64,000 nt of DNA from Paludibacteraceae bacterium (GTDB lineage Bacteria; Bacillota_I; Bacilli_A; RFN20; CAG-826). The translations under genes and the position numbers were made by a program. Numbering within the stretch: the stretch's first letter is position 1; each line of letters starts with the position of its first letter. The stretch is taken from positions 5,926-69,925 of the forward strand of contig CAVFEQ010000003.1 of assembly GCA_963621535.1 (NCBI GenBank). Direction: 5' to 3'. Positions 9,626 to 55,414 of the stretch are shown here, piece after piece. A model generated the notes under the pieces. That model was not told the DNA's origin. It did not search any database and was given only the letters and a program-made list of their open reading frames with translations.

Positions 9626-9793
9626 GTAACTAAAGTATCACCCAAAAAGGGTTTATCCAAAGAAAATTGGTCGTTCTAGAACATTTTCGATGCGCTTTAG
9701 TTCATTTTTATGACCAATGTAAGCGCTTTATAATTTGACTAATCAATTTTATTTAGGCCGTCCTATTGGGCGGCCAGTTAAGGAGAAATGCCT

Positions 9794-13953: not shown

Positions 13954-13961
13954 GGAAAGGG

Positions 13962-16469: not shown

Positions 16470-16485
16470 GGAAAGGAACATCACC

Positions 16486-17850: not shown

Positions 17851-17903
17851 AAAGCCTCACCTTCGAAGGCATTCTTCGAAGGTTTTGCCGTGGAAGGAGG
17901 GTT

Positions 17904-18815
17904 ATGAAAGCCTCTACGAAGAAAATAATAAAAAACAACGTTACAGGATACTTGCTTCTGCTGCCGTTTTTAGTTGGGCTAATCGGCTTCACGGCCTATC
18001 CCTTGCTTTTGGCGTTATGGCAGAGCTTTTTCAAAGACTATAGCCCCGTGACGGGATATGACTTCGCCGACTTCGGATTCGAGAATTACATCAACGCATT
18101 TACGAGCCAAAGCGTGCAGCGTTCCATTTGTCTCACTCTTGTCTATGCGGCGATTACGATCCCCTTTGGGCTCGTCGTCTCCTTCCTCCTCGCCTATTTG
18201 CTCAGTTTGCCAATCAAAGGCACTAAAATATTCCGCGTTTTGGTCTACTTGCCAGCGTTGATCCCTAGCATCGTCTCCGCTTCTATCTACAAGTACATGT
18301 TCGGTCCTGACGAATTCGGGCTGATCAATCAGCTTCTTATTGGCCTAGGAAGAGAGCCGAGCAAGCTTTTGGAATCGCCTGAGCAAAGCATCGCGGTGCT
18401 GAGCTTATTCTTAACCGGCATCTTCGGCTACGGCTGCAGCTCGCCGATGTGGATCGCAGGGTTCAACAGCGTTCCAACTGACGTCTACGAAGCGGCGTTC
18501 GTCGATGGATCTTCCAAACCGAGAACCTTTTTCAAAATCACCATCCCCCTCATGGGAAGATTCATTTTCTTCCAACTGCTTGGCTCCCTCATCGGGACTT
18601 TGCAGATCGGGGAATCCGTCCTCATGCTTTCAAGCAGAGGAGGCTTCGGAGAGAACCTCAACTTCTATGGCTTGATGATCTATAACCAAACCACAGACGG
18701 CATCGGGAACTATGGCTTTGCAAGCGCTTTGTCCTATCTCCTCTTCATTGTGATCGCCTTGCTTTCCATCGCGACGTTCCAAGCGAATAAAAAAACCTAC
18801 ATGGAGGGCATTTGA
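17904..18815 (+). CDS. ABC sugar transporter permease (MalF/UgpA-like)
   Basis: 303 aa. Six TMs and an EAA-like loop region (EAAFVDGSS). Confidence 0.85.
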   Translation: MKASTKKIIKNNVTGYLLLLPFLVGLIGFTAYPLLLALWQSFFKDYSPVTGYDFADFGFENYINAFTSQSVQRSICLTLVYAAITIPFGLVVSFLLAYLLSLPIKGTKIFRVLVYLPALIPSIVSASIYKYMFGPDEFGLINQLLIGLGREPSKLLESPEQSIAVLSLFLTGIFGYGCSSPMWIAGFNSVPTDVYEAAFVDGSSKPRTFFKITIPLMGRFIFFQLLGSLIGTLQIGESVLMLSSRGGFGENLNFYGLMIYNQTTDGIGNYGFASALSYLLFIVIALLSIATFQANKKTYMEGI

Positions 18816-18816
18816 G

Positions 18817-19665
18817 ATGGAGCATTTCAAAATGAAATTTTGGGAGAAGGCCATCATTTACGTTATTTTGACCTTCTTCTCCCTCTTGGCTATCGTCCCC
18901 ACCTTTGTTCTGGTTTCTAGAAGTTTTTTCTCCCTTGATGAGATCACTAGCCTTGGGGCGGGGGTCTTCCCTCATAGTCCCACTCTCGACGCCTATGTGA
19001 CGGCCTTTACCGACGAGGGTTTCTTGACGTCTTTAAAAAACACTCTTCTTACCTGTCTATGCGCGGTCATCGGGGTGCCTTTAACCGCCTTCATGGCCGC
19101 TTACGCCTTCACGCGCATCAAATTCTTCGGCCGGAGATTTTGGTTCCTCTTGGGGCTTGGCACCATCATGATCCCAAGCATCTTGCTCTTGATTCCCGTC
19201 TATTCGATCTTCGTGGATATGGGATGGACCAACACCCTGCTGCCCCTTACCGTGACTTATTTCTTCGGCGGAGGCATCATGAACATCTTCCTCATCATGC
19301 AGTTCATACGCGGATTGCCAAAAGACATGTATGAGGCCGCCGAAATCGACGGCGCAGGGACGTTGCGTCAGATGTTCCAGCTTACCTTGCCTTTGGTGAA
19401 GCCTGTGGTTGCTTATGCTGCCGTCACCGCCTTTATCGGCGCCTGGAATGACGTCATGCGCCCATTGATGTACAACGATTTATCCGAATATTACACGGTC
19501 AACCAATACATCTACATCACTTATCTGCAGCAAACCGCGACGATGGATGCGCTGCCAAACGTCCAAATGGCCCTTGGGGTCATCCTCATGATTCCGATGC
19601 TCATCATTTTCATCGTCTTCCAAAAGCAACTGATTGAGGGCATCCGCCTCTCGGGAGAGAAATAA
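18817..19665 (+). CDS. ABC sugar transporter permease (MalG/UgpE-like)
   Basis: 282 aa. EAA motif (YEAAEIDGAGTLRQMFQLTLPL). 2-nt gap to the previous gene. Confidence 0.85.
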   Translation: MEHFKMKFWEKAIIYVILTFFSLLAIVPTFVLVSRSFFSLDEITSLGAGVFPHSPTLDAYVTAFTDEGFLTSLKNTLLTCLCAVIGVPLTAFMAAYAFTRIKFFGRRFWFLLGLGTIMIPSILLLIPVYSIFVDMGWTNTLLPLTVTYFFGGGIMNIFLIMQFIRGLPKDMYEAAEIDGAGTLRQMFQLTLPLVKPVVAYAAVTAFIGAWNDVMRPLMYNDLSEYYTVNQYIYITYLQQTATMDALPNVQMALGVILMIPMLIIFIVFQKQLIEGIRLSGEK

Positions 19666-19667
19666 CC

Positions 19668-20951
19668 ATGAAAAAGAAAATCGTCGTTGTTGGCTGCGGG
19701 GACCGCGCCACCGTATATTGTCAAGAAGGGGTGAATAACCTTAAAGGAATGGAAGTTGTCGCCTGCGTCGATCCGAATGAGGAAAGGCTAAGGTTCATGC
19801 ACGAACATTTCGCTGTGCCTTCTTCGATGTGTTTCCATAGCATCGAAGAAGTGCTGAAGCTAGGAAAAATCGGGGATGCGGTGATTAATGGCACGATGGA
19901 TACCTTGCACCTGCAGACCGCACTGCCTTTCTTAAAGCAAGGCTACCACATGCTTTTGGAGAAGCCTCTTACCAACAACAAAGAGGATCTTCTTTTGCTT
20001 AAAAAGGTGGCTGAAGAAAATAACGTCAAACTGATGACCTGCCACGTCCTCCGTTACGCGCCCTTCTATCGCAAAATCAAGGAAATGATCCTCAATGGAG
20101 AAATCGGCAGCATCCAAAGCATCGCCACTTCCGAACGCGTCGGCGCCTATCATTCCTCGGTGAGCTATCTCCGAGGCAAGTGGAGCAAGCAAAGCGAATG
20201 CGGCTCCTCCTTGCTTTTAGCAAAATGCTGCCACGATCTCGATTTGCTTTGCTGGCTCAATAACAGCACCAAGCCCGTTGAGGTCTATAGCAACGGAGGG
20301 AGAACCTATTTCACAAAGGAAAACGCCCCAAAGGGCAGCGGAAACCGCTGCCTTGTGGACTGCCCAAAGGAAATCAGAGACAAGTGCATCTACGAAGCGG
20401 AAGCGATGTATATCAAAAACACCGTTTTGCCTTGGTATCCTTGGCAGTGCACAGGGAAAAATTACGAGGACGTCACCGAGGAAGAGAAATACGAATCCTT
20501 GCGGACGAACAATCCGCACGGACGTTGCATCTTCAAATGCGACGGCGATTTGCTTGACCACCAAAACGTCGTGGTGAAATTCGCAAACGGAAGCACCGCG
20601 AGCCATCTTCTGGTTTTAGGCGCGATGAAGCCGACGCGGACGATCTTCATCACCGGGACGGAAGGCGAAATCGAAGGCGATCCTAGCGGGGAACTCATTC
20701 TCCGCAAATTCGACAAGAATAGCGATTTCTTCACCGAGACTAAGGTGAGCTTCGAAGACAAACAAGGCGAGACCGGCGGGCATTATGGGGGCGACAGGGG
20801 CCTTATCGCCGACTTCCTGAACGTTCTTTCAGGAGTTGTCCCGTCAATCTCTTGCACCGCGATTGAAGATTCCATCAATGGGCATTGCCTGGTCTATGGG
20901 GCCGACCAATCCATAGCCAGCCTCAAGCCTGAGAACATCGAAACCGAATGA
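19668..20951 (+). CDS. Gfo/Idh/MocA family NAD(P)-dependent oxidoreductase
   Basis: 427 aa. N-terminal Rossmann KIVVVGCGDRA and a central EKP motif (LLEKPLTNN). Cys-rich insert CLVDCPKEIRDKCIYEAE. Overlaps the next gene by 4 nt. Confidence 0.8.
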   Translation: MKKKIVVVGCGDRATVYCQEGVNNLKGMEVVACVDPNEERLRFMHEHFAVPSSMCFHSIEEVLKLGKIGDAVINGTMDTLHLQTALPFLKQGYHMLLEKPLTNNKEDLLLLKKVAEENNVKLMTCHVLRYAPFYRKIKEMILNGEIGSIQSIATSERVGAYHSSVSYLRGKWSKQSECGSSLLLAKCCHDLDLLCWLNNSTKPVEVYSNGGRTYFTKENAPKGSGNRCLVDCPKEIRDKCIYEAEAMYIKNTVLPWYPWQCTGKNYEDVTEEEKYESLRTNNPHGRCIFKCDGDLLDHQNVVVKFANGSTASHLLVLGAMKPTRTIFITGTEGEIEGDPSGELILRKFDKNSDFFTETKVSFEDKQGETGGHYGGDRGLIADFLNVLSGVVPSISCTAIEDSINGHCLVYGADQSIASLKPENIETE

Positions 20952-23140
20952 GTAAAATGAGCAAAGGAAGAATCACGATTCCCACCGATTCCACTTACGT
21001 CGAGGGGACGAAAAAATATATCGAGCTTTGGGGCGCCGACGCGGTGAGAGATTGTGACGGGGTCAGTTTGCCTAAAGACGTGAAGCAATTTGGCACAGAC
21101 GTCTATAAGGCTTATTTCATCGTAAGGGAAGACCACGATTATGCCTTGAAACATAAGGAATATTGGCAGAACGTCGCTTTGATGAGCCAAAGGAAGATTG
21201 CTTATGGAAACGAGCTCGTGATCGATTTGCTGGAGAACACGTTCAAAGACGCCCTCGAGCCCAACGAGACGGATTACCGCAAATGGTGGCAGGTCATCGA
21301 CCGAACGACGGGCCGCATTCACGAAGACTACGACTACCTAGGCTCAGGGAAAGTCCGCATCAATAGCTGCCTCCCCTACCACGAATACACGGTGAACTTC
21401 TTTGCCAGAAACACCTGGGACCCCGTGCAAATCTATAACTATCACGTGAACAATTGGACTTGCCCGAAAGACATCGATCTTGATCCGGTATATCCAGAAG
21501 CGCTTCAGCATATGCTTGAGAGAATGGAACTATGGCTGAAGGCGAATCCCGATGTAACGGTGGTCCGTTTCACTACTTTTTTCTATAACTTCTTCATTGT
21601 GAACGTCACCGGTACCAAGCAACGCATTTGGGACTGGCACTGCTATGCGATGAGCGCCTCCCCCGCGATGTTCGAATTGTTCAAAAAAGAAAAAGGCGTT
21701 GAAATGAGCCTGGAGGATCTAATCGGCGAGGGCTACTATTCCAACCGCTTCGTTATCCCCGGCAAGAAGCAGTTGGCTTACGAAGACTTCGTGGAAGAAA
21801 AATGCGCCGCTTGGGCAAAGCGATTCGTCGATCTGTGCCATAAATACAGCAAGAAAGCCTTGATGTTCGATGGGGATCATCGCGTTGGCGTGGAACCTTA
21901 TTCTCCTTATTTCCCCTCGATTGGGCTAGACGGGGTGGTCGGGGCTCCAAGCGGAGCCATCTACATCAGCCAAGTGGCGAATATCAAAGGAGTGAAATTC
22001 ACCGAAGGTAGGCTGAATCCTTATTTCTTCCCGAATGAATGCCCTAGCGACGAGAAAGGGAAGCAAATCCTTCTTTCTTGCTGGAACAACATGCGGAGAG
22101 GGCTGCTGAAGAAATCCATTGATCGCATTGGTTTTGGAGGATACCTCAAGCAAATCGAGAACTACCCTTTGTTGACTGCGGCAATTAAAGACGTATGCGA
22201 CGAATTCAGGGGCATCGCGGATGCTCTTGGCCATTCCTCTTGCTCTAGCAAAGGGAGGATCGCCGTGCTCAGTTACAGGGGCAGGCGCGATTCTTGGATG
22301 ATGAATGGGACGTTCGTCGACGATGCGAGGCAAGGGGGCTGCTACTACCATTCCCTTTTCGACGCTTTGGCGGTTTTGCCTTTTGAGGTCGAGTTCATTT
22401 CCTTTGAAGAAGCTTCCAAAACGGATTTAAGCACATACGACTGCCTTCTTTCTTGCGGGGTGCCGAATACGAGCTTCGCCGGAGGCAAGGCATGGGAGAA
22501 CCCTGAGCTTGTTTCCAATATCAGGAGATACGTGCACGAAGGGGGCGCCTTCTTTGGGGTCGGGGAGCCGACCGCCAGCCAACATCAGGGAAGGTTTTTC
22601 CAGTTAAGCGACGTGCTTGGCGTAGAGAAGGAATGCGAGTTCACCCATTTTGAGAAACGCAACCCATTCAAAACGTTAGAAAATCACTGGATTAAGGAGG
22701 ACGTGGATATGTCTTTGGTTGGTTATAACCGTTTCCAAAGAAACGTTTACCCCCTCACCGCGACGGTTTTGGCCAACGAATTCGATTGGGAATATCCAGA
22801 AGGCCAGCAAAATGCCGCGAACGTGCATTTTGCGATCAATGAGTATGGAAAGGGGAGAAGCGTCTATCTTTCTGGAATCACCTGTAACGACGAGACCATT
22901 CGTCTCTTATATCGCGCTTTCCTTTGGGCGATGAAGAAAGAAGACGAGACGAAGCGGCTTTATGCGTTAGCGAGCTCCGTGGATGTTTTCTATTATGAAG
23001 AGAAGCGGATGTACGCTTTGTACAACGATTCCGAAAAAGAAGTCGCGACAAGTTACTATGACCTGCAAGGAAATTTGAAGAACGTTTTCTTGAAAGGAAA
23101 AGAGATTGTCTGGCTGGACGAAAAGGGGCTGAAATTATGA
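20948..23140 (+). CDS. GH112 beta-galactoside phosphorylase (lacto-N-biose/galacto-N-biose or Gal-beta1,4-L-Rha phosphorylase family)
   Basis: 730 aa. Blocks recalled from Bifidobacterium LnpA are conserved: ELWGADAVRDCDG, WQVIDRTTGRI, HEYTVNFFA, WDPVQIYNY, VVRFTTFFYNF, GRFFQLSDVLGVEKE. Confidence 0.8.
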   Translation: MSKMSKGRITIPTDSTYVEGTKKYIELWGADAVRDCDGVSLPKDVKQFGTDVYKAYFIVREDHDYALKHKEYWQNVALMSQRKIAYGNELVIDLLENTFKDALEPNETDYRKWWQVIDRTTGRIHEDYDYLGSGKVRINSCLPYHEYTVNFFARNTWDPVQIYNYHVNNWTCPKDIDLDPVYPEALQHMLERMELWLKANPDVTVVRFTTFFYNFFIVNVTGTKQRIWDWHCYAMSASPAMFELFKKEKGVEMSLEDLIGEGYYSNRFVIPGKKQLAYEDFVEEKCAAWAKRFVDLCHKYSKKALMFDGDHRVGVEPYSPYFPSIGLDGVVGAPSGAIYISQVANIKGVKFTEGRLNPYFFPNECPSDEKGKQILLSCWNNMRRGLLKKSIDRIGFGGYLKQIENYPLLTAAIKDVCDEFRGIADALGHSSCSSKGRIAVLSYRGRRDSWMMNGTFVDDARQGGCYYHSLFDALAVLPFEVEFISFEEASKTDLSTYDCLLSCGVPNTSFAGGKAWENPELVSNIRRYVHEGGAFFGVGEPTASQHQGRFFQLSDVLGVEKECEFTHFEKRNPFKTLENHWIKEDVDMSLVGYNRFQRNVYPLTATVLANEFDWEYPEGQQNAANVHFAINEYGKGRSVYLSGITCNDETIRLLYRAFLWAMKKEDETKRLYALASSVDVFYYEEKRMYALYNDSEKEVATSYYDLQGNLKNVFLKGKEIVWLDEKGLKL

Positions 23141-24744
23141 GAAAGTGCAATTACACAAAGGTCATTGATAGTCATTTGGTGAAGGACGTGGATAGATTAT
23201 CCGCGAATTTTACCTCCGGAGAGCATATTTTCGTCGCCCCGGTTTGCTCCATCCAAAAGGGCGGTTATTTGATCCTAGATTTCGGCAAGGAGATTTGCGG
23301 AAGGGTCCATGTGGTCTTCGGCTTCTCGGAAAATTCAAAAATCAGAATCAGGACCGGGGAGAGCGTCGATGAAGCCTGCGCAGAGCTCAATGAGAAGAAC
23401 GCCGGGAATCACCATTCGTTGAGGGATGCTGTTTATCCCGTGGTCTTTTGGAGCGATTTCTCTACAAGCGAGACCGGCTTCCGTTTCGTGCGGATCGATG
23501 TTCTAGGCGAAGAGAAGGTGGATATAACCTCGATCTACGCCGAAGAAAGTGAGAACGGGCTTACCAAAAGGGGGTCGTTCCTTTCAAGCGATAAAAGGTT
23601 GAACGACATCTATGAGGTGGCTTCTAGGACCATTGAACTTTGCGTTCGTCCCGAAGCGATTTGGGACGGCGTGAAAAGGGACCGCGTGGCCTGGATTGGC
23701 GATTTCTATCCCGAACTGTTAAGCGCATATCTCATCTATGGGAACATCCCTCAGATGGAGAGCATGCTCGATTACGTTTCTTCCTTCGAAGGAAAATGGG
23801 TCAATAGCATCCCCGCCTATTCCGCTTGGTGGATCGTTTGCTTTGAGAAGTATTACCAGCTAAGTGGAAATGAAGCCTATCTGCAAAAGATGCTTCATTA
23901 TTTAAAAGACATCGTAAAGGAATTCTCCAAGATTATTTTCCCTGGCGGGAAGGTGTCTTTCGCCAATTCCACGCTTGGCTTCTTTGATGGGAACGAGCTT
24001 TTCCTTGATTGGCCAACCCACACGACCCCTGACGCGGAAATTGGCTGGCGTTACCTTCTTCTTTACGCGATGAAACGGGCGAGCGTTCTTCTTAGCTCCT
24101 TAGGCGAGGACGCGTCTTTAGCGGATAACATCATCAAGAACCTTAATGAATATTCCTATCCAGCGTCTTCCTTTAAGCAAGTGACCGCTTTAGGAGTGCT
24201 TGCTGGGAAAATCGACCCCAAGGAGGCCGCGCCTTTATTGAAAGAGGGCGGCGCGAAGGGCATGACCTGCTTCCTTAGCTTCGCTATTGTTGAAGCGCTA
24301 AGCTTGGCCAATGAAGGCGACGAGGCGCTTAATCTTATTAAAGAATACTATGGGGCGATGCTGGATTTGGGCGCGACAACATTTTGGGAAGATTTCGATG
24401 TCGATTGGTTAAATGACCATCCAGATGGCGTTTCCGCGCTACCGAACGCTAAGACCAAAAACATCCATGCGGATTATGGCAAATTTTGTTATTTAGGGCT
24501 GCGCCATAGCCTGTGCCACGGCTGGTCGACGGGCTTCCTTGATTTTTACGCATCCTATCTTCTTGGGGTCGTTGCTATAGAACCTGGCTACAAATCGATT
24601 AAAGTCGAACCGCATTTATGCGGACTGAGTTTCGTTGAGGGCACCATACCGACCCCTTATGGTGACATATGGGTCCATCACGAGAATAAAAAAGGCCAGA
24701 TTGAGACCTGCTTGAAGTGCCCGGAAGGCGTTGTGTTAAAATGA
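23137..24744 (+). CDS. six-hairpin glycoside hydrolase, alpha-L-rhamnosidase-like (GH78 catalytic and C-terminal domains only)
   Basis: 535 aa. DGVKRDRVAWIGD and SLCHGWSTGF motifs resemble the GH78 (alpha/alpha)6 catalytic domain. The usual N-terminal beta-sandwich domains are absent. 4-nt overlap on both sides. Confidence 0.55.
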   Translation: MRKCNYTKVIDSHLVKDVDRLSANFTSGEHIFVAPVCSIQKGGYLILDFGKEICGRVHVVFGFSENSKIRIRTGESVDEACAELNEKNAGNHHSLRDAVYPVVFWSDFSTSETGFRFVRIDVLGEEKVDITSIYAEESENGLTKRGSFLSSDKRLNDIYEVASRTIELCVRPEAIWDGVKRDRVAWIGDFYPELLSAYLIYGNIPQMESMLDYVSSFEGKWVNSIPAYSAWWIVCFEKYYQLSGNEAYLQKMLHYLKDIVKEFSKIIFPGGKVSFANSTLGFFDGNELFLDWPTHTTPDAEIGWRYLLLYAMKRASVLLSSLGEDASLADNIIKNLNEYSYPASSFKQVTALGVLAGKIDPKEAAPLLKEGGAKGMTCFLSFAIVEALSLANEGDEALNLIKEYYGAMLDLGATTFWEDFDVDWLNDHPDGVSALPNAKTKNIHADYGKFCYLGLRHSLCHGWSTGFLDFYASYLLGVVAIEPGYKSIKVEPHLCGLSFVEGTIPTPYGDIWVHHENKKGQIETCLKCPEGVVLK

Positions 24745-25658
24745 GAAAATTCATCGTCGACACCGACATCGGAGCCGATTGCGACGACATGGTCGCCCTT
24801 GCTTATTTATTGGGGAAAAGTTCAAAAAAGGAATGCGAGCTGCTTGCGATTACTTTAAGCACCGGGCGCGAGTTCGCCCCTAATTGCGCGCTTTCCCTTT
24901 TGAAAGAACGGGGGTTCACCTCGATTCCTGTTGGACAATATAAAGGGAATCCCTTGCCTTGTGACCGTTTTGACCATTACGCGAAGGCGTTATCAAAAAA
25001 GAATCCCATCAAAGTCGAAAACGCAACGACGCTCATGCGCTCCGTTTTATCTAGCAACGAGAAATGCGACATCATTTGCATCGGACCGCTCTGCAACATC
25101 GCCTCTTTTTTGAAAAGTCAGGCGGATGACATCTCTTCCTTGGACGGAATCAGCTTAGCAAAAGAAAAAATCGGGACCCTTTACCTTATGGGCGGCGCGT
25201 TCGATTTCGGGTCAGGGATTCCATTCCCGGAATGGAACATCGAGCAAGACATCGATAGCGCCCGTTTCGTTTTTGCCTCCTTTCCTCGCCCCATCAAAGC
25301 CATCCCTTTTGAAACGGGTGCAATCGTCAAAACGAGCATTGATTCTACCGAAGGAATTGTCCGCTCATCCATGGAAGCCTTCTTCGAAAGCATTCAAAAC
25401 CCTTCTTTGAAGAGCCGACCAAGTTGGGATCCTCTCACAGCGATGGTTTCACTTAACGAGGAAGGATTTCGTTTTTCCTCTACTGGAAAAATCTCAATTT
25501 CCCCTAAAGGCATCAGTGAGTTCCATGCTTGCGAAGAAGGGAACGCCTCTTATCTTCTGCTGAGCAACGATTTCCCAAAAATCGAAGCAAAACTGAACGC
25601 TTTTTTAAGCGAAATGCACACCTACAAAGGAGATACCGAAAATGAGAAAGATTTATGA
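24741..25658 (+). CDS. inosine-uridine-preferring nucleoside hydrolase family protein
   Basis: The start overlaps the upstream stop (ATGA). The N-terminal fingerprint FIVDTDIGADCDDMVAL matches the DxDxxxDD motif. Confidence 0.8.
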   Translation: MRKFIVDTDIGADCDDMVALAYLLGKSSKKECELLAITLSTGREFAPNCALSLLKERGFTSIPVGQYKGNPLPCDRFDHYAKALSKKNPIKVENATTLMRSVLSSNEKCDIICIGPLCNIASFLKSQADDISSLDGISLAKEKIGTLYLMGGAFDFGSGIPFPEWNIEQDIDSARFVFASFPRPIKAIPFETGAIVKTSIDSTEGIVRSSMEAFFESIQNPSLKSRPSWDPLTAMVSLNEEGFRFSSTGKISISPKGISEFHACEEGNASYLLLSNDFPKIEAKLNAFLSEMHTYKGDTENEKDL

Positions 25659-26514
25659 ACTCGGCTCCATCAACATGGATGTTTCCATTTGCGCCCCCAC
25701 CTTCCCCCAAAAAGGCGAGACGGTTAATGGGAATAATCTTAAGGTGAGCCTCGGCGGGAAAGGGGCGAACCAAGCGATTGCGATCACCAAAGCTGGCTAT
25801 CAGGTTTCTTTTTTAGCGAAACTCGGCGACGATGGTTATGGCAAAGAGGCCTTAGAAACAATTAAGGGATTCGGCTTGAATATCACCGATATTCAGATAG
25901 ACGAAAGCCACCCCACCGGCGTGGCTGTTATTTTGCTTAGCCAAGGAGACAACCGAATCATCATCGAGCATGGGGCGAATTACGCTCTTGGAGAAAAAGA
26001 TGTTGATGAATTTTTGCGACAAGCGAAAGCAAACGATATTTTCTTCACCCAATACGAAAATAGACCAGACATCGTTGCTTATGCCTTGAAGAAAGCCAAA
26101 AGCAAGGGGATGTTCACCGTTTGGAACCCCTCGCCAATCGGAGACTATTCTCCCGATCTTCTTTCCTGTGTTGACTTGCTTGTTGTGAATGAGAACGAAG
26201 CAAAGGCGATTTTATCCAAGGAAAAGGCGACTTCTTTAAAGGAATTGCCAGTAGGAGACATTTTGCTTACGCTCGGTGAGCAAGGTTCAAAATATTATCG
26301 TAAAGATGAGATGATTGAGATTCCGGCGAAGCGAGTGGAAGCAATCGACACCACCGGTGCCGGCGACACCTTTTTAGGCTATTTTTTAGCGTATTACGCC
26401 AGAGAGAAGCCATTAGAAACTTGTCTTCGCATGGCCACAAAGGCAAGCGCAATCGCCTGCACTAGACGCGGAGCCTCATCTTCGATTCCTTTGGATTACG
26501 AAGTGAGGAAGTGA
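25642..26514 (+). CDS. rbsK: ribokinase
   Basis: 290 aa. Both ribokinase signatures are present: VSLGGKGANQAIA (N-terminal) and DTTGAGDTF (C-terminal). 17-nt overlap with the nucleoside hydrolase gene. Confidence 0.85.
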   Translation: MRKIYELGSINMDVSICAPTFPQKGETVNGNNLKVSLGGKGANQAIAITKAGYQVSFLAKLGDDGYGKEALETIKGFGLNITDIQIDESHPTGVAVILLSQGDNRIIIEHGANYALGEKDVDEFLRQAKANDIFFTQYENRPDIVAYALKKAKSKGMFTVWNPSPIGDYSPDLLSCVDLLVVNENEAKAILSKEKATSLKELPVGDILLTLGEQGSKYYRKDEMIEIPAKRVEAIDTTGAGDTFLGYFLAYYAREKPLETCLRMATKASAIACTRRGASSSIPLDYEVRK

Positions 26515-26715: not shown

Positions 26716-26738
26716 GCGGCCAAAAAGGCCGCTTTTTA
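26716..26738. terminator. bidirectional hairpin GCGGCC-AAAAA-GGCCGC followed by TTTTT
   Basis: Seen between the convergent rbsK (+) and FGGY kinase (-) genes. A T-run follows on the plus strand. Confidence 0.6.
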
Positions 26739-28295
26739 TTCGCGTTTAGAATAATGATAGAGATACTTAAGCTCGTCTTTTAGTTTCGGATATAACTTAA
26801 GGTAGACGTTTTTATAAAGCTTATCGTAGGTCGCCGCTTCTTCCGGGCGAGGCATAAACTCTTTCGCGGGATGGATCATTTCCGCCACCGCTTCCTTCGC
26901 GTCTTTGAAGGCGCCGATTGAGAGGAATCCGGAAATAGCAGCACCTAAGGAAGAATTCTCATTCGTCTGCACCTTAACGACTTTCTTTCCGAGAATATCG
27001 GCTGCAATTTGGCAGACCTCATCCGAGTTGGATCCACCTCCAGACACACGGATTTCTTTGAATTTGGTATGTAACAATTTCTCGAAGCGTTCCATGCCGA
27101 AGCGAAGCTCATAATCGATACCCTCTAATATCGCCCGATAGACATGGAACCTGGTCGTCATGTCGGAAAACCCAACGATGGTCCCACGGACTTCCGGTTT
27201 CTCAAGTTCAGAGCCCCAGTAAGGCTGAAGAATCAGCCCGTCGCATCCAGGAGGAACGTCTTTAAGATGTTCATTGAACACGTTCGGGGTCAGCTCATCC
27301 GACATCATTTCCTTTACTTGGGTGGCGCCGAACTCCTTCAAAAACCAATTAAGCATCCAATATCCGCGATAGATTTGGAGGTCCAAATTGTAATAATCGG
27401 GGAGAACAGAGGGATAAGCGGGGAGAAAAGGGAAGGGCGAGATGTATTTTTTGGTAAGGGCCTCAATCGTGCACGCCGTGCCGAAAGAAATAGAGGCAAT
27501 GGAATCATCGACGACGCCCGTCCCCAAAGTTTCGCAAGACTTGTCGCTCCCGGCGGCATAAACAGGAATGCCGCTTGGCAGCCCAAGAGCAGAAGAAGCC
27601 TCATCAGAAAGGTTTCCGATCTGGCTTTGGCTAGGGACTAATTCGCAAAGTTGGTCTTTTCTCACTGAGAAAATACGGCCTTGGAAATGTTTCATCGGGT
27701 CGGAATACCAAGACTTCTTTGAATAGTTAATCGGATAATGCCCCGTGAAATCAGAGGGGCAATCTTTAAGTCGGCCAGTCAGGCGATGTAAGAAATAAGT
27801 GGAAACTGCAACATATTTGTCCGTTTTGGCCCAGTTTTCAGGTTCGTTTTCTTTAACCCAGTTGGCCGCGGTCCTGATGCGGTTTAAATGAATGGTCTCG
27901 GTTTTGCCCACCAAAGCAAATAAAAAGCGAGAGGACCATGGAAGGGGATCTTTACACTTAGCGGTCCTTTGATCGAGCCAAAGGATCATTGGGCGGACGG
28001 GGTGAAAATCGGCATCGAGCAAAACGGCGGAATCACGAAAGCAGGTTTGGGTAATGCCGGCAATAAAAGGAACCAAGTTAGAATTTTTGTCGGCTAAACG
28101 CCTAACGGCTTTGCATAGGCAATCGAAATAATAATCAGGGTCTTGTTCGGCCCAACCGGGCTTAGGGGAAACATAAGCGGGGTCGTAGCTTTCCTTTTCG
28201 CCTGCTAGAAGGTTTCCTTTTTTGTCGAATATGCTGGCACGAACGGACTGGGTCCCAAAATCCAGAGCAAGAATCAAAGCGGAGTTAACGTCCAT
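26736..28295 (-). CDS. FGGY-family carbohydrate kinase (xylulo-/rhamnulo-/glycerol-kinase-like)
   Basis: N-terminus ALDFGTQSVRASIFD and the phrase GWAEQDPDYYF are typical of FGGY kinases. Start set at ATG 28295 (MDVNSALI) with an upstream AAGGA. Confidence 0.8.
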   Translation of the reverse strand: MDVNSALILALDFGTQSVRASIFDKKGNLLAGEKESYDPAYVSPKPGWAEQDPDYYFDCLCKAVRRLADKNSNLVPFIAGITQTCFRDSAVLLDADFHPVRPMILWLDQRTAKCKDPLPWSSRFLFALVGKTETIHLNRIRTAANWVKENEPENWAKTDKYVAVSTYFLHRLTGRLKDCPSDFTGHYPINYSKKSWYSDPMKHFQGRIFSVRKDQLCELVPSQSQIGNLSDEASSALGLPSGIPVYAAGSDKSCETLGTGVVDDSIASISFGTACTIEALTKKYISPFPFLPAYPSVLPDYYNLDLQIYRGYWMLNWFLKEFGATQVKEMMSDELTPNVFNEHLKDVPPGCDGLILQPYWGSELEKPEVRGTIVGFSDMTTRFHVYRAILEGIDYELRFGMERFEKLLHTKFKEIRVSGGGSNSDEVCQIAADILGKKVVKVQTNENSSLGAAISGFLSIGAFKDAKEAVAEMIHPAKEFMPRPEEAATYDKLYKNVYLKLYPKLKDELKYLYHYSKRE

Positions 28296-28565
28296 GGTTT
28301 TTCCTTTTTTCGCAACAAATGATAACACCGCAGAAAACCAGGCGCATTCCGTCAAAATACAAAAAGTCCTAAATTTGCACAAGTTTTTGTCAATTAACGA
28401 AAAGGTTCATGTTTATTTTAAGGAAAACGAGAATTGAAAGATTTGTCGTGAAACAAAACCAAACGCTTGTCTCGACGTTTTATTTTCAAAGAAAAGACCA
28501 TTGGAAGGTCTTTTTGTTGCCCAGCATTTCGTTCAAATCTAAAATAGGCCAGAAAAGAGCGAAAA

Positions 28566-29546
28566 ATGATTATTTCCAGAGCGCCATTCCGAGTTTCCTT
28601 CTGCGGTGGAGGGAGCGATATACCCTCTTTCTATGAGAAGTACACGGGGTGCGTATTGTCGACCACGATACGCAAATACGTCTATATCACGATAAACAAG
28701 GCCTTTAACAAAGACTCCATAACGTTGAAGTACTCCCAAACGGAAGTCGTGAACGACCCTTCCCAAATTCAGCACCGAATTTTCAAACAAGTTCTGAGCG
28801 ATTTTGGCACGAAAGGCGTCGAAATCACCTCAATGGCGGACATTCCTGCCGGAACCGGCCTTGGCTCATCCAGCTCATTCACGGTCGCCCTTATAAAAGC
28901 TCTCTACGCTTTTAATTCCAACTCCGTTTCGGCCTATAAAGTGGCGAAAGAAGCGTGTGATGTAGAGATTAATCAATTGGGAAACCCCATTGGGAAGCAA
29001 GATCAATTCGCCGCGGCCTTCGGCGGTATTCGTTACTATGAGTTCGAGCCCGACGGATTCGTGAAAGTCGAGCCGATCATCATGAGCAAGTCAGCGCGAA
29101 ATCACCTAGAAGCCTCGATGATGCTCTTTTACACTGGGGCGTTGCATGATGCGAACAAAATCCTTGGCGAGGAGAGCAAAAACCTAGCCTCCGCCAACGA
29201 AAAAATAAACGCAACGAAAACCCTTTGCGACATGACGAAAGAACTGAAAATCAGTCTTGAGGAAAATGACGTAGACGCCATAGGCCCATGCCTAAAAAGA
29301 GGTTGGGAAATCAAGAAAAGCTTGGCTTCAGGCATCACTAGTCCCCTCATCGATCATTGCTATGAACTCGGGATTAAGGCCGGCGCAACAGGAGGCAAAC
29401 TATTAGGTGCCGGCGGAGGCGGATTTTTGCTTTTCTATGTCCCTGATTCTTCAAAAAGGGCGCAAATCCGGGCTGCTTTGCACGATTTAAAGGAAATGCC
29501 GTTCGAATTAGACCAATCGGGCGTAAGCATTATTTATACAGAATGA
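28566..29546 (+). CDS. hddA: D-glycero-alpha-D-manno-heptose 7-phosphate kinase (GHMP kinase)
   Basis: 326 aa. GHMP motif PAGTGLGSSSS. Glycine-rich C-terminal GATGGKLLGAGGGGF. First gene of the heptose trio. Confidence 0.75.
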   Translation: MIISRAPFRVSFCGGGSDIPSFYEKYTGCVLSTTIRKYVYITINKAFNKDSITLKYSQTEVVNDPSQIQHRIFKQVLSDFGTKGVEITSMADIPAGTGLGSSSSFTVALIKALYAFNSNSVSAYKVAKEACDVEINQLGNPIGKQDQFAAAFGGIRYYEFEPDGFVKVEPIIMSKSARNHLEASMMLFYTGALHDANKILGEESKNLASANEKINATKTLCDMTKELKISLEENDVDAIGPCLKRGWEIKKSLASGITSPLIDHCYELGIKAGATGGKLLGAGGGGFLLFYVPDSSKRAQIRAALHDLKEMPFELDQSGVSIIYTE

Positions 29547-30850
29547 TCGCCTTGATTCAAGCCGGCGGGGCCGGCACAAGATTAAAGTCAATCACCGGCG
29601 ATTTGCCAAAGCCAATGGTGAGCATTTGTGGCAAACCAATTTTGCAATGGCAAATCGAATCAATGATATCTTCAGGGATCGACCATTTCATTTTGGTCGT
29701 TTCCAACAAGTCGACCGCCGTTCAGGACTATTTTGGGGATGGCTCAAAATTAGGCTGTGAAATCGACTACATCATTGAAACTTCCCCTTTGGGATCAGGT
29801 GGGGCGCTCGCTTTGGTTGCCTCTAAAATCAAAGAAGATTTCATTCTCTGTTTCGGCGATTTGATGCTCGATATCGATTGGCAAAGATTCATGGAGTTTC
29901 ATAAGAAAAGCGGCTCCATCATCACTGCTTTTTGCCATCCGAATTCCCACCCATACGACTCTGACATCTTAATCGCTAACAAAAGCGGAAAGATCATTAG
30001 CATCCTTCCCAAAAGCCAACCGCGGGACTTTTTCTACGCCAATCTCACAAACGCCGGAATCTATTGCGTTTCGCCTGATCTTCTAGAGACGTTCGATGAT
30101 GAACAACCCATCAAAATGGATTTCGAAAAAGACCTTTTGATTCCGACAATCGCTTGTGAAGGAGCGTTCGCTTATCGCAGTTCCGAATACGTAAAAGACG
30201 CCGGAACGCCCGATAGATTCGCCTCCGTCACTGAGGACTGTCAAAAAGGCATTATCTCCGCAAAAAGTTTAAAAAACCCGCAAAAAGCCATTTTTTTGGA
30301 TCGCGATGGGACGATAAACGTCTTCGGAAGTTTTGTGACAGAGCCGTCAAAGCTAAACCTTATGCCGCAAGCGCCTTCGGCAATCAAACGCATCAATCGC
30401 TCATCTTATTTAGCGATTTGCGTCACCAATCAGCCCGTTGTCGCAAGAGGAGAAACCAGTTTCGAAGTCCTCCACGAGATTCACTGCAAAATGGAAGATC
30501 TGTTAGGGAATGAAGACGCTTATCTTGACGACATCTATTTTTGTCCCCACCACCCAGACAAAGGCTTCCCCGGCGAAGTTCCAAGCCTAAAAATCCATTG
30601 CGATTGCAGAAAGCCAAAAATCGGAATGCTTTTAAAGGCAAAAGCCAAATACAACATCGATTTGTCAAAATCCTGGTTCGTCGGAGACACGTGCCAAGAT
30701 GTGCAAACAGGCATAAACGCCGGCTGCAAAACAATCCTGCTTCTCGGCGGAGATCCCCATCCATACGCTAAATACGGCGACGCCAAGCCGGATTTTATAT
30801 GCAACACGATTGACGAGGCCATTGATTACATTCTCGCGAAGGAGGAATGA
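29543..30850 (+). CDS. bifunctional D-glycero-alpha-D-manno-heptose-1-phosphate guanylyltransferase / D,D-heptose-1,7-bisphosphate phosphatase
   Basis: N-terminal nucleotidyltransferase (QAGGAGTRL). C-terminal HAD GmhB signature FLDRDGTIN plus Zn-binding CPHHPDKGF...CDCRKP. Confidence 0.75.
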   Translation: MIALIQAGGAGTRLKSITGDLPKPMVSICGKPILQWQIESMISSGIDHFILVVSNKSTAVQDYFGDGSKLGCEIDYIIETSPLGSGGALALVASKIKEDFILCFGDLMLDIDWQRFMEFHKKSGSIITAFCHPNSHPYDSDILIANKSGKIISILPKSQPRDFFYANLTNAGIYCVSPDLLETFDDEQPIKMDFEKDLLIPTIACEGAFAYRSSEYVKDAGTPDRFASVTEDCQKGIISAKSLKNPQKAIFLDRDGTINVFGSFVTEPSKLNLMPQAPSAIKRINRSSYLAICVTNQPVVARGETSFEVLHEIHCKMEDLLGNEDAYLDDIYFCPHHPDKGFPGEVPSLKIHCDCRKPKIGMLLKAKAKYNIDLSKSWFVGDTCQDVQTGINAGCKTILLLGGDPHPYAKYGDAKPDFICNTIDEAIDYILAKEE

Positions 30851-31458
30851 CCATGGATTTCAAAAACAAGATCAAAAATTACCTAGACAACGAAACCAAA
30901 GTCATCGCCGCTTTGGACACCGAGGAAATCAACAAAACAATGAATGCCCTCCTCGATTGCTATAACCGCGGGGGCACCGTCTACACCTGTGGAAACGGAG
31001 GCAGCGCCTCCACCGCTACCCACATGGTGTGCGATTTTGGCAAGGGAACATGCTATGACTTGGAAAAAAAGTTCCATTTCGTTTGCCTGAACGACAACAT
31101 CCCCACCATTTTGGCGATCGCCAACGACGACTCTTACGACAACGTCTTTGTCTATCAGCTTAAAGATCGGCTTACCAAAAACGATATATTGCTCGCCATC
31201 TCCGGCTCAGGAAACAGCCACAACATCATCAAGGCCGTAGATTACGCAAAAGAAGTCGGCGCAAAAGTCATCGGCATGACCGGCTATAACGGCGGCAAGC
31301 TCATGAAAGCGGCCGATTATCACCTTCACGCCCCGATTGACGACATGCAGATCACCGAAGACGTGCATTTGATTTTCAATCACATGATGATGCAGATATT
31401 TTGGCAGTACCTCCAAGAAATAAACGGCAAAGAAGCCATTTACAAAATCAATCAATAA
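30847..31458 (+). CDS. gmhA: phosphoheptose (sedoheptulose-7-phosphate) isomerase, SIS domain
   Basis: 203 aa. SIS motifs CGNGGSASTATH and AISGSGNS. Confidence 0.8.
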   Translation: MTMDFKNKIKNYLDNETKVIAALDTEEINKTMNALLDCYNRGGTVYTCGNGGSASTATHMVCDFGKGTCYDLEKKFHFVCLNDNIPTILAIANDDSYDNVFVYQLKDRLTKNDILLAISGSGNSHNIIKAVDYAKEVGAKVIGMTGYNGGKLMKAADYHLHAPIDDMQITEDVHLIFNHMMMQIFWQYLQEINGKEAIYKINQ

Positions 31459-31621: not shown

Positions 31622-34267
31622 ATGGCAGAAAAGAAGTACGTCTATTCCTTCAAGGAAGCCCACGAGTACAAACTCGGCAAGGATATCCTTGGCGGAAAAG
31701 GTTTCGGACTTGCTGAAATGACCGCCGCAGGGGTCAACATCCCCGCTGGTTTCACCATTTCCACCGAAGCCTGCACCCTTTATTACGATTCCGGGAAAGC
31801 CATCCCTGATTTCGTGTGGGATGACATCGTGAACCACCTTCACGAAGTCGAAAAAATCAATGGCAAATCCTTCGGCGGAGGCACCGGCGTGCCTTTGCTC
31901 GTCTCGGTCCGTTCTGGCGCCCGTCAGTCCATGCCGGGCATGATGGACACCATCCTCAACCTCGGCCTTAACGACAAGACCGTCGATGAGCTCGCCAAAG
32001 CCGCCAACAACGAGCGCTTTGCTTGGGATTCCTATCGCCGCTTCATGTTGATGTTCACCAATATTGCCAAAGGACATCCGCGCACCGAAATGGATGCGAT
32101 GCTCGACAAGATCAAGACCGACAACGGCTACAAGCTCGACACCGAAGTCACCACCGATCAGCTCAAAGGTCTCGTCAAAGATTACAAAGCTTATTACAAG
32201 AAGATCTTCGGCGAAGACTTCCCGACCGATCCTTACGTTCAGCTCAAAGAAGCCGTCGCCGCCGTTTTCCGCAGCTGGGACAACCCCCGCGCGAACGTCT
32301 ATCGTCAAATGAACGGCATCCCCTATGAATGGGGCACCGCCGTCAACGTTCAGACCATGGTCTTCGGCAATATGGGCGAAGATTCTGGCACCGGCGTCGC
32401 TTTCTCCCGTGACCCCGGCACCGGCGAAAAGAAAATCTACGCCGAATTCCTTCCCAACGCCCAAGGCGAAGACGTCGTCGCTGGCGTCCGCACGCCTCTT
32501 CACATCGACGCTCTCAAAGAGAGAATGCCGAAAGTCTATGACGAATTCCTCGCGACCATCACCCGCATGGAAAATTATTTCCACGATATGCAGGATATGG
32601 AATACACCGTCGAGCACGAGAAGCTTTACTTCCTCCAGGCCCGTAACGGCAAGCGCACCGCGCGTGCCGCCCTCAAGATCGCTTGCGACCTTGTCGACGA
32701 AGGCTTGATCGACGAAAAAGAAGCGGTCCTCCGCGTCGAGCCGAAGCAGCTCAATGACTTGCTCCACCCGACCTTCGACACCGCTGACCTCAAAGCTCAC
32801 GACGCCGTCATCCACGGCCTCCCCGCCTCTCCGGGTGCTGGCACTGGCGCCATCGTCTTCACTGCCGATGAGTGCAAAGAGTGGCACGACGCTGGCAAGA
32901 AAGTCATCCTTGTCCGTTCCGAAACCTCCCCTGAGGACATCATCGGCATGGTCAACTCCGAGGCTATCCTCACCGCTCGTGGCGGCATGACCTCCCACGC
33001 CGCGGTCGTTGCTCGTTCCATGGGCAAATGCTGCGTCGCCGGCGCGACCGAAATCGTCGTCAACGAAGAAGCCAAGACCGTCACCGTCGGCAACAAGGTC
33101 TATCACGAAGGCGACATCCTCTCCGTCAACGGATCCACTGGTCTTGTTTACGAAGGCGCCATCAAGATGGTCCCCGCCGACCTCGGTGGAGACTTCGGCC
33201 GTCTCATGGGCTGGGCCGACAAATATCGTCGCCTCAAAGTCCGCGTCAACGCCAACACCGTCGCTGACGCCAATAATGGCAACCGCTTCGGCGCCGAAGG
33301 CATTGGCCTTTGCCGCACTGAGCGTATGTTCTTCGCCCCTGAGCGCATCCTCCACATGCGTGAGATGATCCTCTCCGACACGACCGAACAACGCGAAGCC
33401 GCTCTTGAGAAGATTCGTCCTTTCCTCGCGGATGACTTCCGCCAGATGTACGAAGCGAATCCCGACACCCTCGTCAATATTCGTCTTCTCGACCCCCCGC
33501 TACACGAATTCCTCCCCGAAATCCACGATGACAAAACCATCGCCGAAATCGCGGGTCAGCTCGGTGTCAGCGAACAAAAGGTCCGTGACCGCATCAATCA
33601 GCTCCACCAGGCCAACCCGATGATGGGCTTCCGCGGCGTTCGTCTCTGCGTTGCCTATCCGGAAATCTACGCTGTCCTTGCGCGCGCCATTATCCAGGCT
33701 GCCATCGAGGCCAGCAAGAAAGTCGGCAAAGACATCGAGCCCGAGATCATGATCCCTCTCTGCGGCGAGCTCAAAGAGTATCGCTGGGCGAAGAAAACCG
33801 TCATCGACACCGTCGAAGACGAAATGGCCAAAGAAGGCAAGAAACTCGTCTACCACATCGGTATGATGATCGAAATTCCACGCGCTTGCATCCGCGCCGG
33901 TGAACTTGCCAAAGAGGCTGAATTCTTCTCCTTCGGGACCAACGACCTCACCCAGCTCACCATGGGCTTCTCCCGCGATGACTCTGGTCAGTTCCTCCCT
34001 TACTACTACGATCGCAAGATTTACGAATTCGATCCGTTCCAGACCGTCGACATCGACGGCGTCGGCGAACTCGTGAAGATGGCCGTCGAACGTGGCCGCG
34101 CCTCCAACAAAGACCTCCTTATCGGTGTTTGCGGTGAGACCGGTGGTGATGCCGCCTCCATCGAATTCTACGATGCTGTCGGTCTTGACTACGTTTCTTG
34201 CTCGCCCTTCCGCGTCCCGCTTGCCCGCCTTGCTGCAGCCCAAGCTGCGATCAAGCACAGCAAGTAA
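31622..34267 (+). CDS. ppdK: pyruvate, phosphate dikinase
   Basis: 881 aa. Phosphohistidine region GGMTSHAAVVAR, PEP-utilising TIM-barrel C-terminus. Strongly biased towards C/G-ending codons. Confidence 0.95.
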   Translation: MAEKKYVYSFKEAHEYKLGKDILGGKGFGLAEMTAAGVNIPAGFTISTEACTLYYDSGKAIPDFVWDDIVNHLHEVEKINGKSFGGGTGVPLLVSVRSGARQSMPGMMDTILNLGLNDKTVDELAKAANNERFAWDSYRRFMLMFTNIAKGHPRTEMDAMLDKIKTDNGYKLDTEVTTDQLKGLVKDYKAYYKKIFGEDFPTDPYVQLKEAVAAVFRSWDNPRANVYRQMNGIPYEWGTAVNVQTMVFGNMGEDSGTGVAFSRDPGTGEKKIYAEFLPNAQGEDVVAGVRTPLHIDALKERMPKVYDEFLATITRMENYFHDMQDMEYTVEHEKLYFLQARNGKRTARAALKIACDLVDEGLIDEKEAVLRVEPKQLNDLLHPTFDTADLKAHDAVIHGLPASPGAGTGAIVFTADECKEWHDAGKKVILVRSETSPEDIIGMVNSEAILTARGGMTSHAAVVARSMGKCCVAGATEIVVNEEAKTVTVGNKVYHEGDILSVNGSTGLVYEGAIKMVPADLGGDFGRLMGWADKYRRLKVRVNANTVADANNGNRFGAEGIGLCRTERMFFAPERILHMREMILSDTTEQREAALEKIRPFLADDFRQMYEANPDTLVNIRLLDPPLHEFLPEIHDDKTIAEIAGQLGVSEQKVRDRINQLHQANPMMGFRGVRLCVAYPEIYAVLARAIIQAAIEASKKVGKDIEPEIMIPLCGELKEYRWAKKTVIDTVEDEMAKEGKKLVYHIGMMIEIPRACIRAGELAKEAEFFSFGTNDLTQLTMGFSRDDSGQFLPYYYDRKIYEFDPFQTVDIDGVGELVKMAVERGRASNKDLLIGVCGETGGDAASIEFYDAVGLDYVSCSPFRVPLARLAAAQAAIKHSK

Positions 34268-55219: not shown

Positions 55220-55315
55220 TGACGGAGCGTAACCTAAATAGTTTAATTGAATTCTGCTTCTAGGTGGCGCAAGAGAAAACTTAATGCGTTATCTATAGGT
55301 TTTGCTATAATCCTA

Positions 55316-55404: not shown

Positions 55405-55414
55405 TATTAGACCC

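Follow-up and report, generated by a model that had tools for sequence, protein, structure and literature searches.

Layout of the cassette

The 64,000-nucleotide stretch analyzed here (contig CAVFEQ010000003.1 of assembly GCA_963621535.1), called the window below, belongs to an uncultured Bacilli lineage and carries at positions 28566-31458 three open reading frames (ORFs) on the plus strand. They encode a GHMP kinase of the HddA type, a fusion of an HddC-type guanylyltransferase with a GmhB-type phosphatase, and a GmhA-like SIS isomerase (Table 1). We consider it probable that the three genes constitute a self-contained cassette for the synthesis of guanosine diphosphate (GDP)-heptose. The same three proteins had been named earlier by a sequence-only reading of this DNA, and the domains as well as the motifs GGAGTRL, DRDGT, CPHH and CDCRKP were all found in our analysis. 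Each of the four activities that the route demands is backed by matches to protein families and to known structures, and at the family level the predicted pathway is well supported.

Table 1. Coordinates of the cassette genes, domains and signals, and of the two bordering genes
Feature	Coordinates	Strand	Remarks
hddA-type GHMP kinase gene	28566..29546	+	326 aa; Pfam GHMP_kinases_N and _C
hddC-gmhB fusion gene	29543..30850	+	435 aa; start overlaps hddA stop (ATGA)
HddC-type sugar-1-phosphate guanylyltransferase domain, N-terminal, residues 3-234	29549..30244	+	predicted; PF00483, 89.6 bits
GmhB-type HAD-IIIA heptose-1,7-bisphosphate 7-phosphatase domain, C-terminal, residues 247-433	30281..30841	+	predicted; NCBIfam PRK08942
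Shine-Dalgarno sequence AAGGAGG for the ATG at 30853	30839..30845	+	read off the sequence
gmhA-like SIS isomerase gene	30853..31458	+	201 aa; SIS_2/SIS; the mechanical ORF is 30847-31458, 203 aa; variant active site
Promoter-like site 5' of hddA	28517..28545	+	9/12 consensus positions; site count equals shuffle expectation; weak
Orphan FGGY carbohydrate kinase, left border of the insertion site	26736..28298	-	outside the system; back-to-back with PPDK in 24 cassette-free loci
Pyruvate phosphate dikinase (PPDK), right border of the insertion site	31622..34267	+	outside the system; gene context

The genes lie very close together. The sequence-only reading had assumed an overlap of 4 nt at each junction, which is real for hddA and the fusion gene (29543-29546), but the second junction most likely is of another kind. 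The Shine-Dalgarno sequence stands 1 nt from the ATG at 30847 and 7 nt from the ATG at 30853, and the length of 201 aa is found in the gene calls of public contigs and in nearly all homologues. Because of this spacing, these gene calls and these homologues, the predicted start of gmhA is most likely at 30853, which leaves a gap of 2 nt after the TGA of the fusion gene (30848-30850) and no overlap. The tight coupling of the three genes holds with either start. The 183-nt leader was considered as the site of a regulatory RNA or attenuator and the sequence 3' of gmhA as a terminator, and both ideas were rejected. The hairpins are no more stable than those of shuffled sequence (z -0.9 to -1.5), Rfam gives no match there, and promoters and terminators are predicted just as often in shuffled sequence.

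The HddC-GmhB fusion protein

The 435-aa protein is the center of the cassette. Its nucleotidyltransferase loop GGAGTRL begins at residue 8 and the phosphatase motifs DRDGT, CPHH and CDCRKP follow at residues 253, 334 and 353, respectively; in agreement with this order, Pfam detects NTP_transferase in residues 3-234 and afterwards HAD-type matches at 255-426. The structures in the PDB that the N-terminal half matches are GMPPB (7d72, 99 bits) and HddC from Yersinia pseudotuberculosis (YpHddC; 5xhw/6jq8, 90 bits). The C-terminal half has the GmhB model of NCBIfam as its best match (152.6 bits, E 8e-45), contains a HAD-IIIA domain that scores above its own cut-off and has E. coli GmhB as its closest PDB relative by sequence. 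The AlphaFold model of the whole protein, for which 52 homologues were used, is confident and compact, with a mean predicted local distance difference test (pLDDT) score of 92.4 and a predicted template modeling (pTM) score of 0.90. When its halves were compared with known structures by Foldseek, the N-terminal one superimposed on HddC 5xhw (TM-score for the target, TMt, 0.84; root-mean-square deviation, rmsd, 3.2 A) and the C-terminal one on E. coli GmhB 3l8e (TMt 0.92, rmsd 2.0 A), while Foldseek found no single PDB chain that spans both halves (TM-score for the query, TMq, at most 0.51).

The residues expected to do the chemistry were examined in an alignment of 52 homologues. The structure of YpHddC with GMPPN showed that Glu80 in the motif EXXPLGTGGA contacts the guanine (PMC6981941); E79 of the fusion protein (E79-T-S-P-L-G-S-G-G-A; IIETSPLGSGGA) aligns to this glutamate and is invariant in the homologues. 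Equally invariant are G8, G9, G11, R13, K23, D106 and D219 of the nucleotidyltransferase, D253, D255, T295, K357, G381, D382 and D386 of the HAD phosphatase, and the residues of the zinc cap, C334-x-H336 and C353-x-C355, which are separated by 16 residues. Both active sites look intact, since the catalytic residues are invariant among the homologues. With its fold and its guanine-binding glutamate the N-terminal half corresponds to a PF00483-fold HddC guanylyltransferase, the use of the nucleoside triphosphate (NTP) being predicted, and the C-terminal half, a HAD-IIIA domain with DxD, DxxxD and a CxH...CxC zinc cap, has the features expected of GmhB. The union of guanylyltransferase and phosphatase in one protein, as originally proposed, is thus borne out by domain, motif and fold matches.

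The kinase and the isomerase

The first gene of the cassette encodes a protein whose best NCBIfam match is HddA (177.5 bits, E 5e-52, residues 2-302) and which harbors the GHMP motif PAGTGLGSSSS at residue 94. Its relatives in the PDB are all heptose kinases, namely those of Bacteroides thetaiotaomicron (3k85, E 2e-55), Burkholderia pseudomallei (WcbL, 4usk, 1e-45) and Campylobacter jejuni (Cj1425, 4n3o, 1e-41). The protein has the characteristics of a heptose-7-phosphate 1-kinase of the GHMP family, as far as family membership predicts the reaction.

The isomerase is the less orthodox member of the trio. The best NCBIfam match is gmhA (TIGR00441, 116 bits, E 1.5e-33), and the PDB matches are the GmhA structures 1tk9, 5by2 and 2i22. 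Compared with E. coli GmhA, the protein retains His61, His180, Ser119, Ser121, Ser124 and Asp94, and has Asp for Glu65, Glu for Gln172 and Gly for Thr120. This D/E/G set is common to all 14 cassette-linked GmhAs with at least 45% identity and to three or four more distant ones, and a second type of cassette-linked GmhA retains Glu, Gln and Thr. The comparison that separated the two types covered the window (30853-31458), L002-L012, L022, L034, L038, L052, L056, L077 and other loci of our collection. With His-Asp-Glu-His the window's GmhA may still be able to coordinate zinc and to carry out the isomerization. The variant active site is uncharacterized and represents a modest novelty; the label given by PGAP to the relatives of this isomerase is only "SIS domain-containing protein".

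Distribution of the fusion and of the cassette

The sequence-only reading had asked whether the fusion is lineage-specific; it turned out to be neither lineage-specific nor unusual. A species scan with one genome per GTDB species yielded at least 80 loci, and all 80 listed encode both domains. The carriers are Bacilli and Erysipelotrichaceae metagenome-assembled genomes (MAGs), Lachnospiraceae, Clostridium neonatale, Butyrivibrio, Treponema, Prevotella, Muribaculum, Succinivibrio dextrinosolvens, Desulfovibrionaceae and others. By a word index, 120 relatives of full length (about 435 aa) with 57-91% identity were retrieved, and in an exhaustive search of representatives clustered at 50% identity almost every one of the top 150 matches both domains in one stretch (approximately residues 3-431), the E-value at rank 150 still being 1e-87, which corresponds to at least 150 clusters. 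The fusion is not lineage-specific because it is present across many phyla; it is ancient and common, and both monoderms and diderms possess it.

In many of these representatives the pair of domains is part of a larger protein. A three-domain HddC-GmhB-SIS fusion was found (P0276; also L014), as were HddC-GmhB with a C-terminal P-loop domain resembling PRK/uridine kinase (P0277, P0286, P0302, L069), a GT4-HddC-GmhB fusion (P0272) and an RmlD-like-HddC-GmhB fusion (P0294). The class with the PRK/uridine-kinase-like domain, proteins of about 630 aa, appears to make up over half of the best 150 representatives. Larger fusions are located at L014:10001-11926, L069:9959-11887 and L072:10001-11869, and hddA still lies beside those of L069 and L072.

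The partners accompany the fusion as well. Of the 80 listed loci, 64 encode an HddA homologue and 56 a GmhA homologue at a distance of at most 10 kb from the fusion gene, the order of the genes being variable, and the recurrence of the trio as a cassette in most of these loci is well past chance. GDP-mannose-4,6-dehydratase-like genes occur near the cassette in 24 loci; the glycosyltransferases of the neighborhood are of the GT2 (14 and 9) and GT4 (12, 8 and 7) families, and initiating transferases of the Bac_transf family (10 loci), RmlC (10) and WecG/TagA (8) are further neighbors. Read in this way, the gene context in distant lineages, together with the natural GT4 and RmlD-like fusions, supports the notion of a module that would supply GDP-heptose, often 6-deoxy-heptose, for polysaccharides, and it indirectly favors GDP as the nucleotide.

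The closest named relatives are MAGs labeled Bacilli, Erysipelotrichaceae, Bacillales or "Tenericutes bacterium", most of which were sampled from rumen and gut, and the exact sequence of the fusion protein is present also on a Logan contig of the run SRR13434688.

The cassette as an insertion between FGGY kinase and PPDK

In the clade of the window the surroundings are of a different, housekeeping nature. The loci L001-L008 share a backbone of mfd, pth, flavodoxin and TetR genes, then the FGGY kinase gene, hddA-fusion-gmhA and, further on, PPDK, ispE and ksgA genes, with variable insertions on both sides. The FGGY kinase gene divergently adjoins hddA in all 8 close genomic relatives that cover that side. 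Genes for glycan assembly flank the cassette neither in the window nor in 12 syntenic relatives (L001-L008, L082-L084, L099).

We examined 80 metagenomic loci with FGGY orthologues, a set separate from that of the species scan, for the presence of the cassette. The cassette lies between FGGY and PPDK in 4 of them (L082-L084, L099), and in 24 others (among the range L086-L116, L125, L133) it is absent and the two border genes stand back-to-back. The PPDK protein is 79% identical in a locus with the cassette (L084) and 81% in one without it (L086); its distribution is patchy, since relatives with and without it are similarly close by PPDK. The cassette is thus an insertion of about 3 kb into the FGGY/PPDK pair, solitary in this clade. 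At one further locus a relic of the fusion, 401 aa long, adjoins the FGGY kinase gene (L085:136-1341, minus strand); its GGxGTRL loop is gone and no hddA lies between relic and FGGY, which looks like decay of the cassette. A recent horizontal transfer was considered and rejected, there being no compositional signal: the GC content of the cassette is 0.46-0.48, and this value and the GC content at third codon positions (GC3) match those of the neighboring housekeeping genes. For the same reason the acquisition is not recent. That the cassette stands alone, inserted among housekeeping genes of uncultured Bacilli, is a modest novelty in itself.

One might argue that the FGGY kinase supplies the substrate of the pathway, for instance as a sedoheptulokinase. 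We rejected this candidate on account of the 24 loci that have the FGGY-PPDK pair and lack the cassette, and of the finding that outside the clade, among the listed loci, no FGGY gene lies by the cassette. For these reasons the adjacency reflects the insertion site. The kinase itself is XylB-like (247 bits; cut-off 380), and in the PDB it is no closer to glycerol kinases than to xylulose or gluconate kinases.

Comparison with known systems

The predicted activities of the cassette are those of the heptose branch of capsule synthesis in Campylobacter jejuni (Cj1424, Cj1425, Cj1152, Cj1423; PMC10680097), where the same types of SIS isomerase, GHMP kinase, HAD-IIIA zinc-cap phosphatase and PF00483 guanylyltransferase with a guanine-binding glutamate are employed. 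The window differs in that phosphatase and guanylyltransferase form one polypeptide with HddC at the N-terminus and GmhB at the C-terminus, in the variant D/E/G site of its GmhA, in the isolation of the cassette from any genes for glycan assembly and in scores that stay below the equivalog cut-offs. HldE, too, is a bifunctional fusion of a nucleotide-heptose pathway. However, it joins a PfkB-type kinase to an adenylyltransferase of cytidylyltransferase fold and carries out non-consecutive steps on the beta anomer with ADP as the carrier, whereas the fusion described here joins a PF00483 transferase to a HAD phosphatase, covers consecutive steps of the alpha/GDP type and is unrelated to HldE in its folds.

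The gut anaerobe Bacteroides thetaiotaomicron feeds capsule-type glycans by the alpha/GDP route, and its kinase 3k85 is the closest solved relative of the HddA described here (E 2e-55). Its GmhB (BT_0477) is alpha-preferring according to Wang et al. (2010), as cited in PMC4380924 and PMC8204981. This GmhB was studied as a separate protein, while GmhB is fused to HddC in the window and in many Prevotella and Muribaculaceae. Acholeplasma oculi is a wall-less relative of the Bacilli without lipopolysaccharide (LPS) that possesses the same pathway (Aocu_04590-620), and the report on it also cites a heptose glycolipid of Acholeplasma modicum (PMC4221730). There HddA, GmhA, HddC and GmhB are reported as four separate genes, a difference that is taken from their description. 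As to the O-glycosylation of S-layers of the Aneurinibacillus thermoaerophilus, Geobacillus or Paenibacillus type, the two repeat surface proteins of the 64-kb window (described below) match no S-layer family, and the cassette is flanked by no genes for glycan assembly in the window or in the 12 syntenic relatives.

Proposed pathway and alternative explanations

We propose that the GmhA-like isomerase would produce heptose-7-phosphate, which HddA would phosphorylate at C1 to the alpha-1,7-bisphosphate; the GmhB domain of the 435-aa protein would then remove the 7-phosphate, and the HddC domain of the same protein would couple the heptose-1-phosphate to GTP. Two consecutive steps would thereby reside in one protein, which may favor the hand-over of heptose-1-phosphate. 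The analysis shows which genes and domains are present, that the catalytic motifs are intact, how the fusion is distributed and that the cassette was inserted; the nature of the substrates, GDP as the nucleotide, a manno configuration, this channeling and the destination of the product are inferred. The cassette is a portable and widely shared module that an ancestor of this Bacilli clade acquired between the genes of the FGGY kinase and PPDK, and the activated heptose presumably feeds a glycoconjugate of the cell surface by means of transferases encoded elsewhere in the genome. The route of the alpha/GDP type with a GHMP kinase and HddC, which had been claimed at the outset, is upheld at the family level in that three genes cover its four activities. 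The set for the beta/ADP route (HldA/HldE, HldC, HldD, GT9) is by its predicted protein families a different one, as the kinase of the cassette is of the GHMP and the transferase of the PF00483 type. The only PfkB gene nearby (25642-26514) scores 261 bits as a ribokinase and 66 bits with rfaE domain I. Since the host belongs to the Bacilli, the LPS core is not the expected destination, as the sequence-only reading had recognized. That reading had also pointed out that heptosyltransferases of the LPS core would speak for a diderm; Pfam scans of essentially all ORFs of at least 150 aa in the 64-kb window found no such genes of the GT9 family and no HldD-like, HldE-type or other LPS genes.

Several observations weigh against the proposed pathway. 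The scores of all four activities fall below the curated equivalog cut-offs, with 177.5 bits against 600 for HddA, 97.5 against 300 for HddC, 152.6 against 178 for GmhB and 116 against 209 for GmhA, and therefore we regard the proteins as divergent members of their families. The phosphatase is matched by the beta-type GmhB model with 153 bits and by the alpha-type model with 93. In the clade of the window no glycosyltransferase stands next to the cassette, and no flippase or oligosaccharyltransferase either. The literature searched holds no paper that describes or characterizes an HddC-GmhB fusion and no biochemical data on any member of the family. The three substitutions in the GmhA site are the main reason why our confidence in the exact product is held down. 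The last point leads to a different product of the same cassette, if the variant GmhA gave another epimer of heptose-7-phosphate or the transferase used another NTP. In the GmhA of Mycobacterium tuberculosis Glu66 and Gln173 are the catalytic pair, and Gln173 and Thr122 are fully conserved in 12 orthologues (PMC7705670). The window and all 14 of its closer GmhA relatives deviate at three positions (E. coli Glu65, Gln172 and Thr120) that the literature regards as catalytic or substrate-binding, two of them as fully conserved, and that the other cassette type keeps; the bare PGAP label of these relatives fits such a view. However, Asp and Glu are still able to bind the metal and to act as acid and base, both types of GmhA are paired with orthologous HddA and HddC-GmhB proteins, the guanine-binding glutamate is conserved, and homologues of GDP-sugar dehydratases occur beside cassettes with the variant GmhA as well (e.g., L009). 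Thus another product is rather unlikely in our judgment. It is hardly credible that the fusion merely combines a pyrophosphorylase for GDP-mannose or another hexose with a generic sugar phosphatase outside any heptose pathway. This idea draws on the N-terminal half, which scores 131.7 bits (E 3e-38) with the Rv-type mannose-1-phosphate guanylyltransferase and 97.5 bits (E 8.5e-28) with HddC, a further point against our reading, and which in the PDB likewise prefers GMPPB (99 bits) to HddC (90 bits). Yet the similarity to the ManC type is to be expected because YpHddC itself accepts mannose-1-phosphate in assays (PMC6981941), the C-terminal half possesses the CxH...CxC zinc cap specific to GmhB/HisB with GmhB as its best match, and genes of the HddA and GmhA types are co-operonic with the fusion in most of the 80 listed loci.

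The destination of GDP-heptose is the other matter on which explanations diverge. A glycolipid or lipoglycan of the membrane, similar to the heptose-containing pentaglycosyl diglyceride of A. modicum, has to be kept alongside polysaccharides and glycoproteins because of the pathway in Acholeplasma and the heptose glycolipid of A. modicum, and we consider it an improbable candidate. It agrees with the labels of the relatives (Bacilli, Erysipelotrichaceae, "Tenericutes bacterium"), with the pathway of A. oculi and the A. modicum lipid (PMC4221730), with a GT4 protein of the window that resembles diacylglycerol (DAG) glycolipid synthases, and with surface proteins of the window that have lipoprotein or C-terminal membrane anchors and no LPXTG. 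A link of this GT4 to heptose was not found by sequence comparison, though, and other lineages hold the cassette in polysaccharide loci of the Bac_transf/WecG/GT2 type. We also thought of the stronger version, in which the fused HddC-GmhB and the His-Asp-Glu-His GmhA would make a non-canonical nucleotide-heptose, a heptose-bearing membrane glycolipid or lipoglycan, or both, in Tenericutes-like and possibly wall-reduced Bacilli of gut and rumen; this we hold to be doubtful. If it were true, it would concern a use of heptose so far known only from the lipid chemistry done on A. modicum in the 1970s. The suggestion of the sequence-only reading was another one, namely that heptose might O-glycosylate two GC-rich repeat surface proteins (9788-13953) and that the glycosyltransferase at 51194-52192 might take part in the pathway. 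The proteins do have signal peptides and C-terminal membrane anchors, with a GC3 of 0.75, as in highly expressed genes, they are probably abundant, and a GT4 gene does exist at that position. But the repeat proteins belong to an island of about 18 kb that is absent from syntenic relatives bearing the cassette (L002, L003, L006), and thus their presence is uncoupled from it; SLH and other S-layer domains are missing from them, no oligosaccharyltransferase was found among the ORFs of the 64-kb window, and the GT4 matches DAG glycolipid synthases and shows merely generic similarity to the GT4 fused to HddC-GmhB. The proposal is very unlikely in both of its parts.

The value of the GDP-heptose cassette lies mainly in annotation. 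The pathway is known and the fusion architecture is common, and no new biological principle is involved; yet a very common bifunctional HddC-GmhB now stands in public databases under other names. The few relatives with labels go by "HAD-IIIA family hydrolase [Bacilli bacterium]", [quoted passage not shown] or "histidinol-phosphate phosphatase family protein", and the isomerase is known as a SIS domain protein only. If the cassette were recognized, hundreds of anaerobes from gut and rumen would be flagged for GDP-heptose synthesis, among them monoderm Bacilli and Clostridia, in which heptose glycans have hardly been studied. In addition, the fusion serves as a "Rosetta stone" that marks those GmhB proteins which serve the alpha/GDP route.

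Surface proteins, the GT4 gene and other features of the window

The two repeat proteins are paralogues (9788-11164 and 11602-13953) composed of a signal peptide, repeats of about 170 aa, and a C-terminal transmembrane helix with a lysine tail, without LPXTG; neither has a match in Pfam or any other family. PPDK and gyrA have a GC3 similar to theirs (about 0.75), and high expression is suggested by this. The island of about 18 kb in which they lie (8786-26514) encodes an AraC regulator, the two repeat proteins, a probable lipoprotein, a sugar ABC transporter, a GFO/IDH/MocA oxidoreductase, a GH112 lacto-N-biose phosphorylase, a rhamnosidase-like protein, a nucleoside hydrolase and a ribokinase, and looks like a strain-variable locus of glycan utilization. 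The start of the ORF 13869-16469 is probably overcalled: an internal segment, MNMKNNKFGKRIYFVALLLPCICAC, resembles the signal peptide of a lipoprotein, and the mature protein would comprise 830 aa with no family match.

The gene at 51194-52192, between gyrA and serS, has no Pfam match at E <= 1e-5, and relaxed GT4 matches are marginal (E 0.002-0.14). Its only good family matches are to two NCBIfam models, with which it aligns over the full length: the model IagA/BgsA, of glycosyltransferases for the LTA glycolipid anchor, recognizes it with 124 bits (E 8e-36, model positions 27-332 of 333), below the cut-off of 460, and the model of the Dgs processive DAG alpha-glucosyltransferase does so with 89 bits, again below the cut-off; by sequence it has no relative in the PDB. 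An Asp takes the place of the usual Glu of the GT4 motif. Most simply, the predicted product is a divergent GT4 and a synthase of membrane glycolipids. A specific kinship with the GT4 domain of the GT4-HddC-GmhB fusion was tried and rejected, the similarity being at the superfamily level only (23% identity, E 0.002).

The window includes the origin region dnaA-dnaN-recF-gyrB-gyrA. A small bacterial signal recognition particle (SRP) RNA lies at 55311-55409 (55.5 bits) and overlaps the first ~54 codons of a TadA-like deaminase ORF (55247-55879) whose domain begins at residue 60; because of this overlap with the 5' part of the ORF the true start of the deaminase must be downstream of the RNA gene. 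The last 2 kb (62001-64000) have a low GC content, 0.386 compared with the window mean of 0.496, contain a gene of the Fic/DOC family (62267-63328, minus strand) and are possibly foreign DNA.

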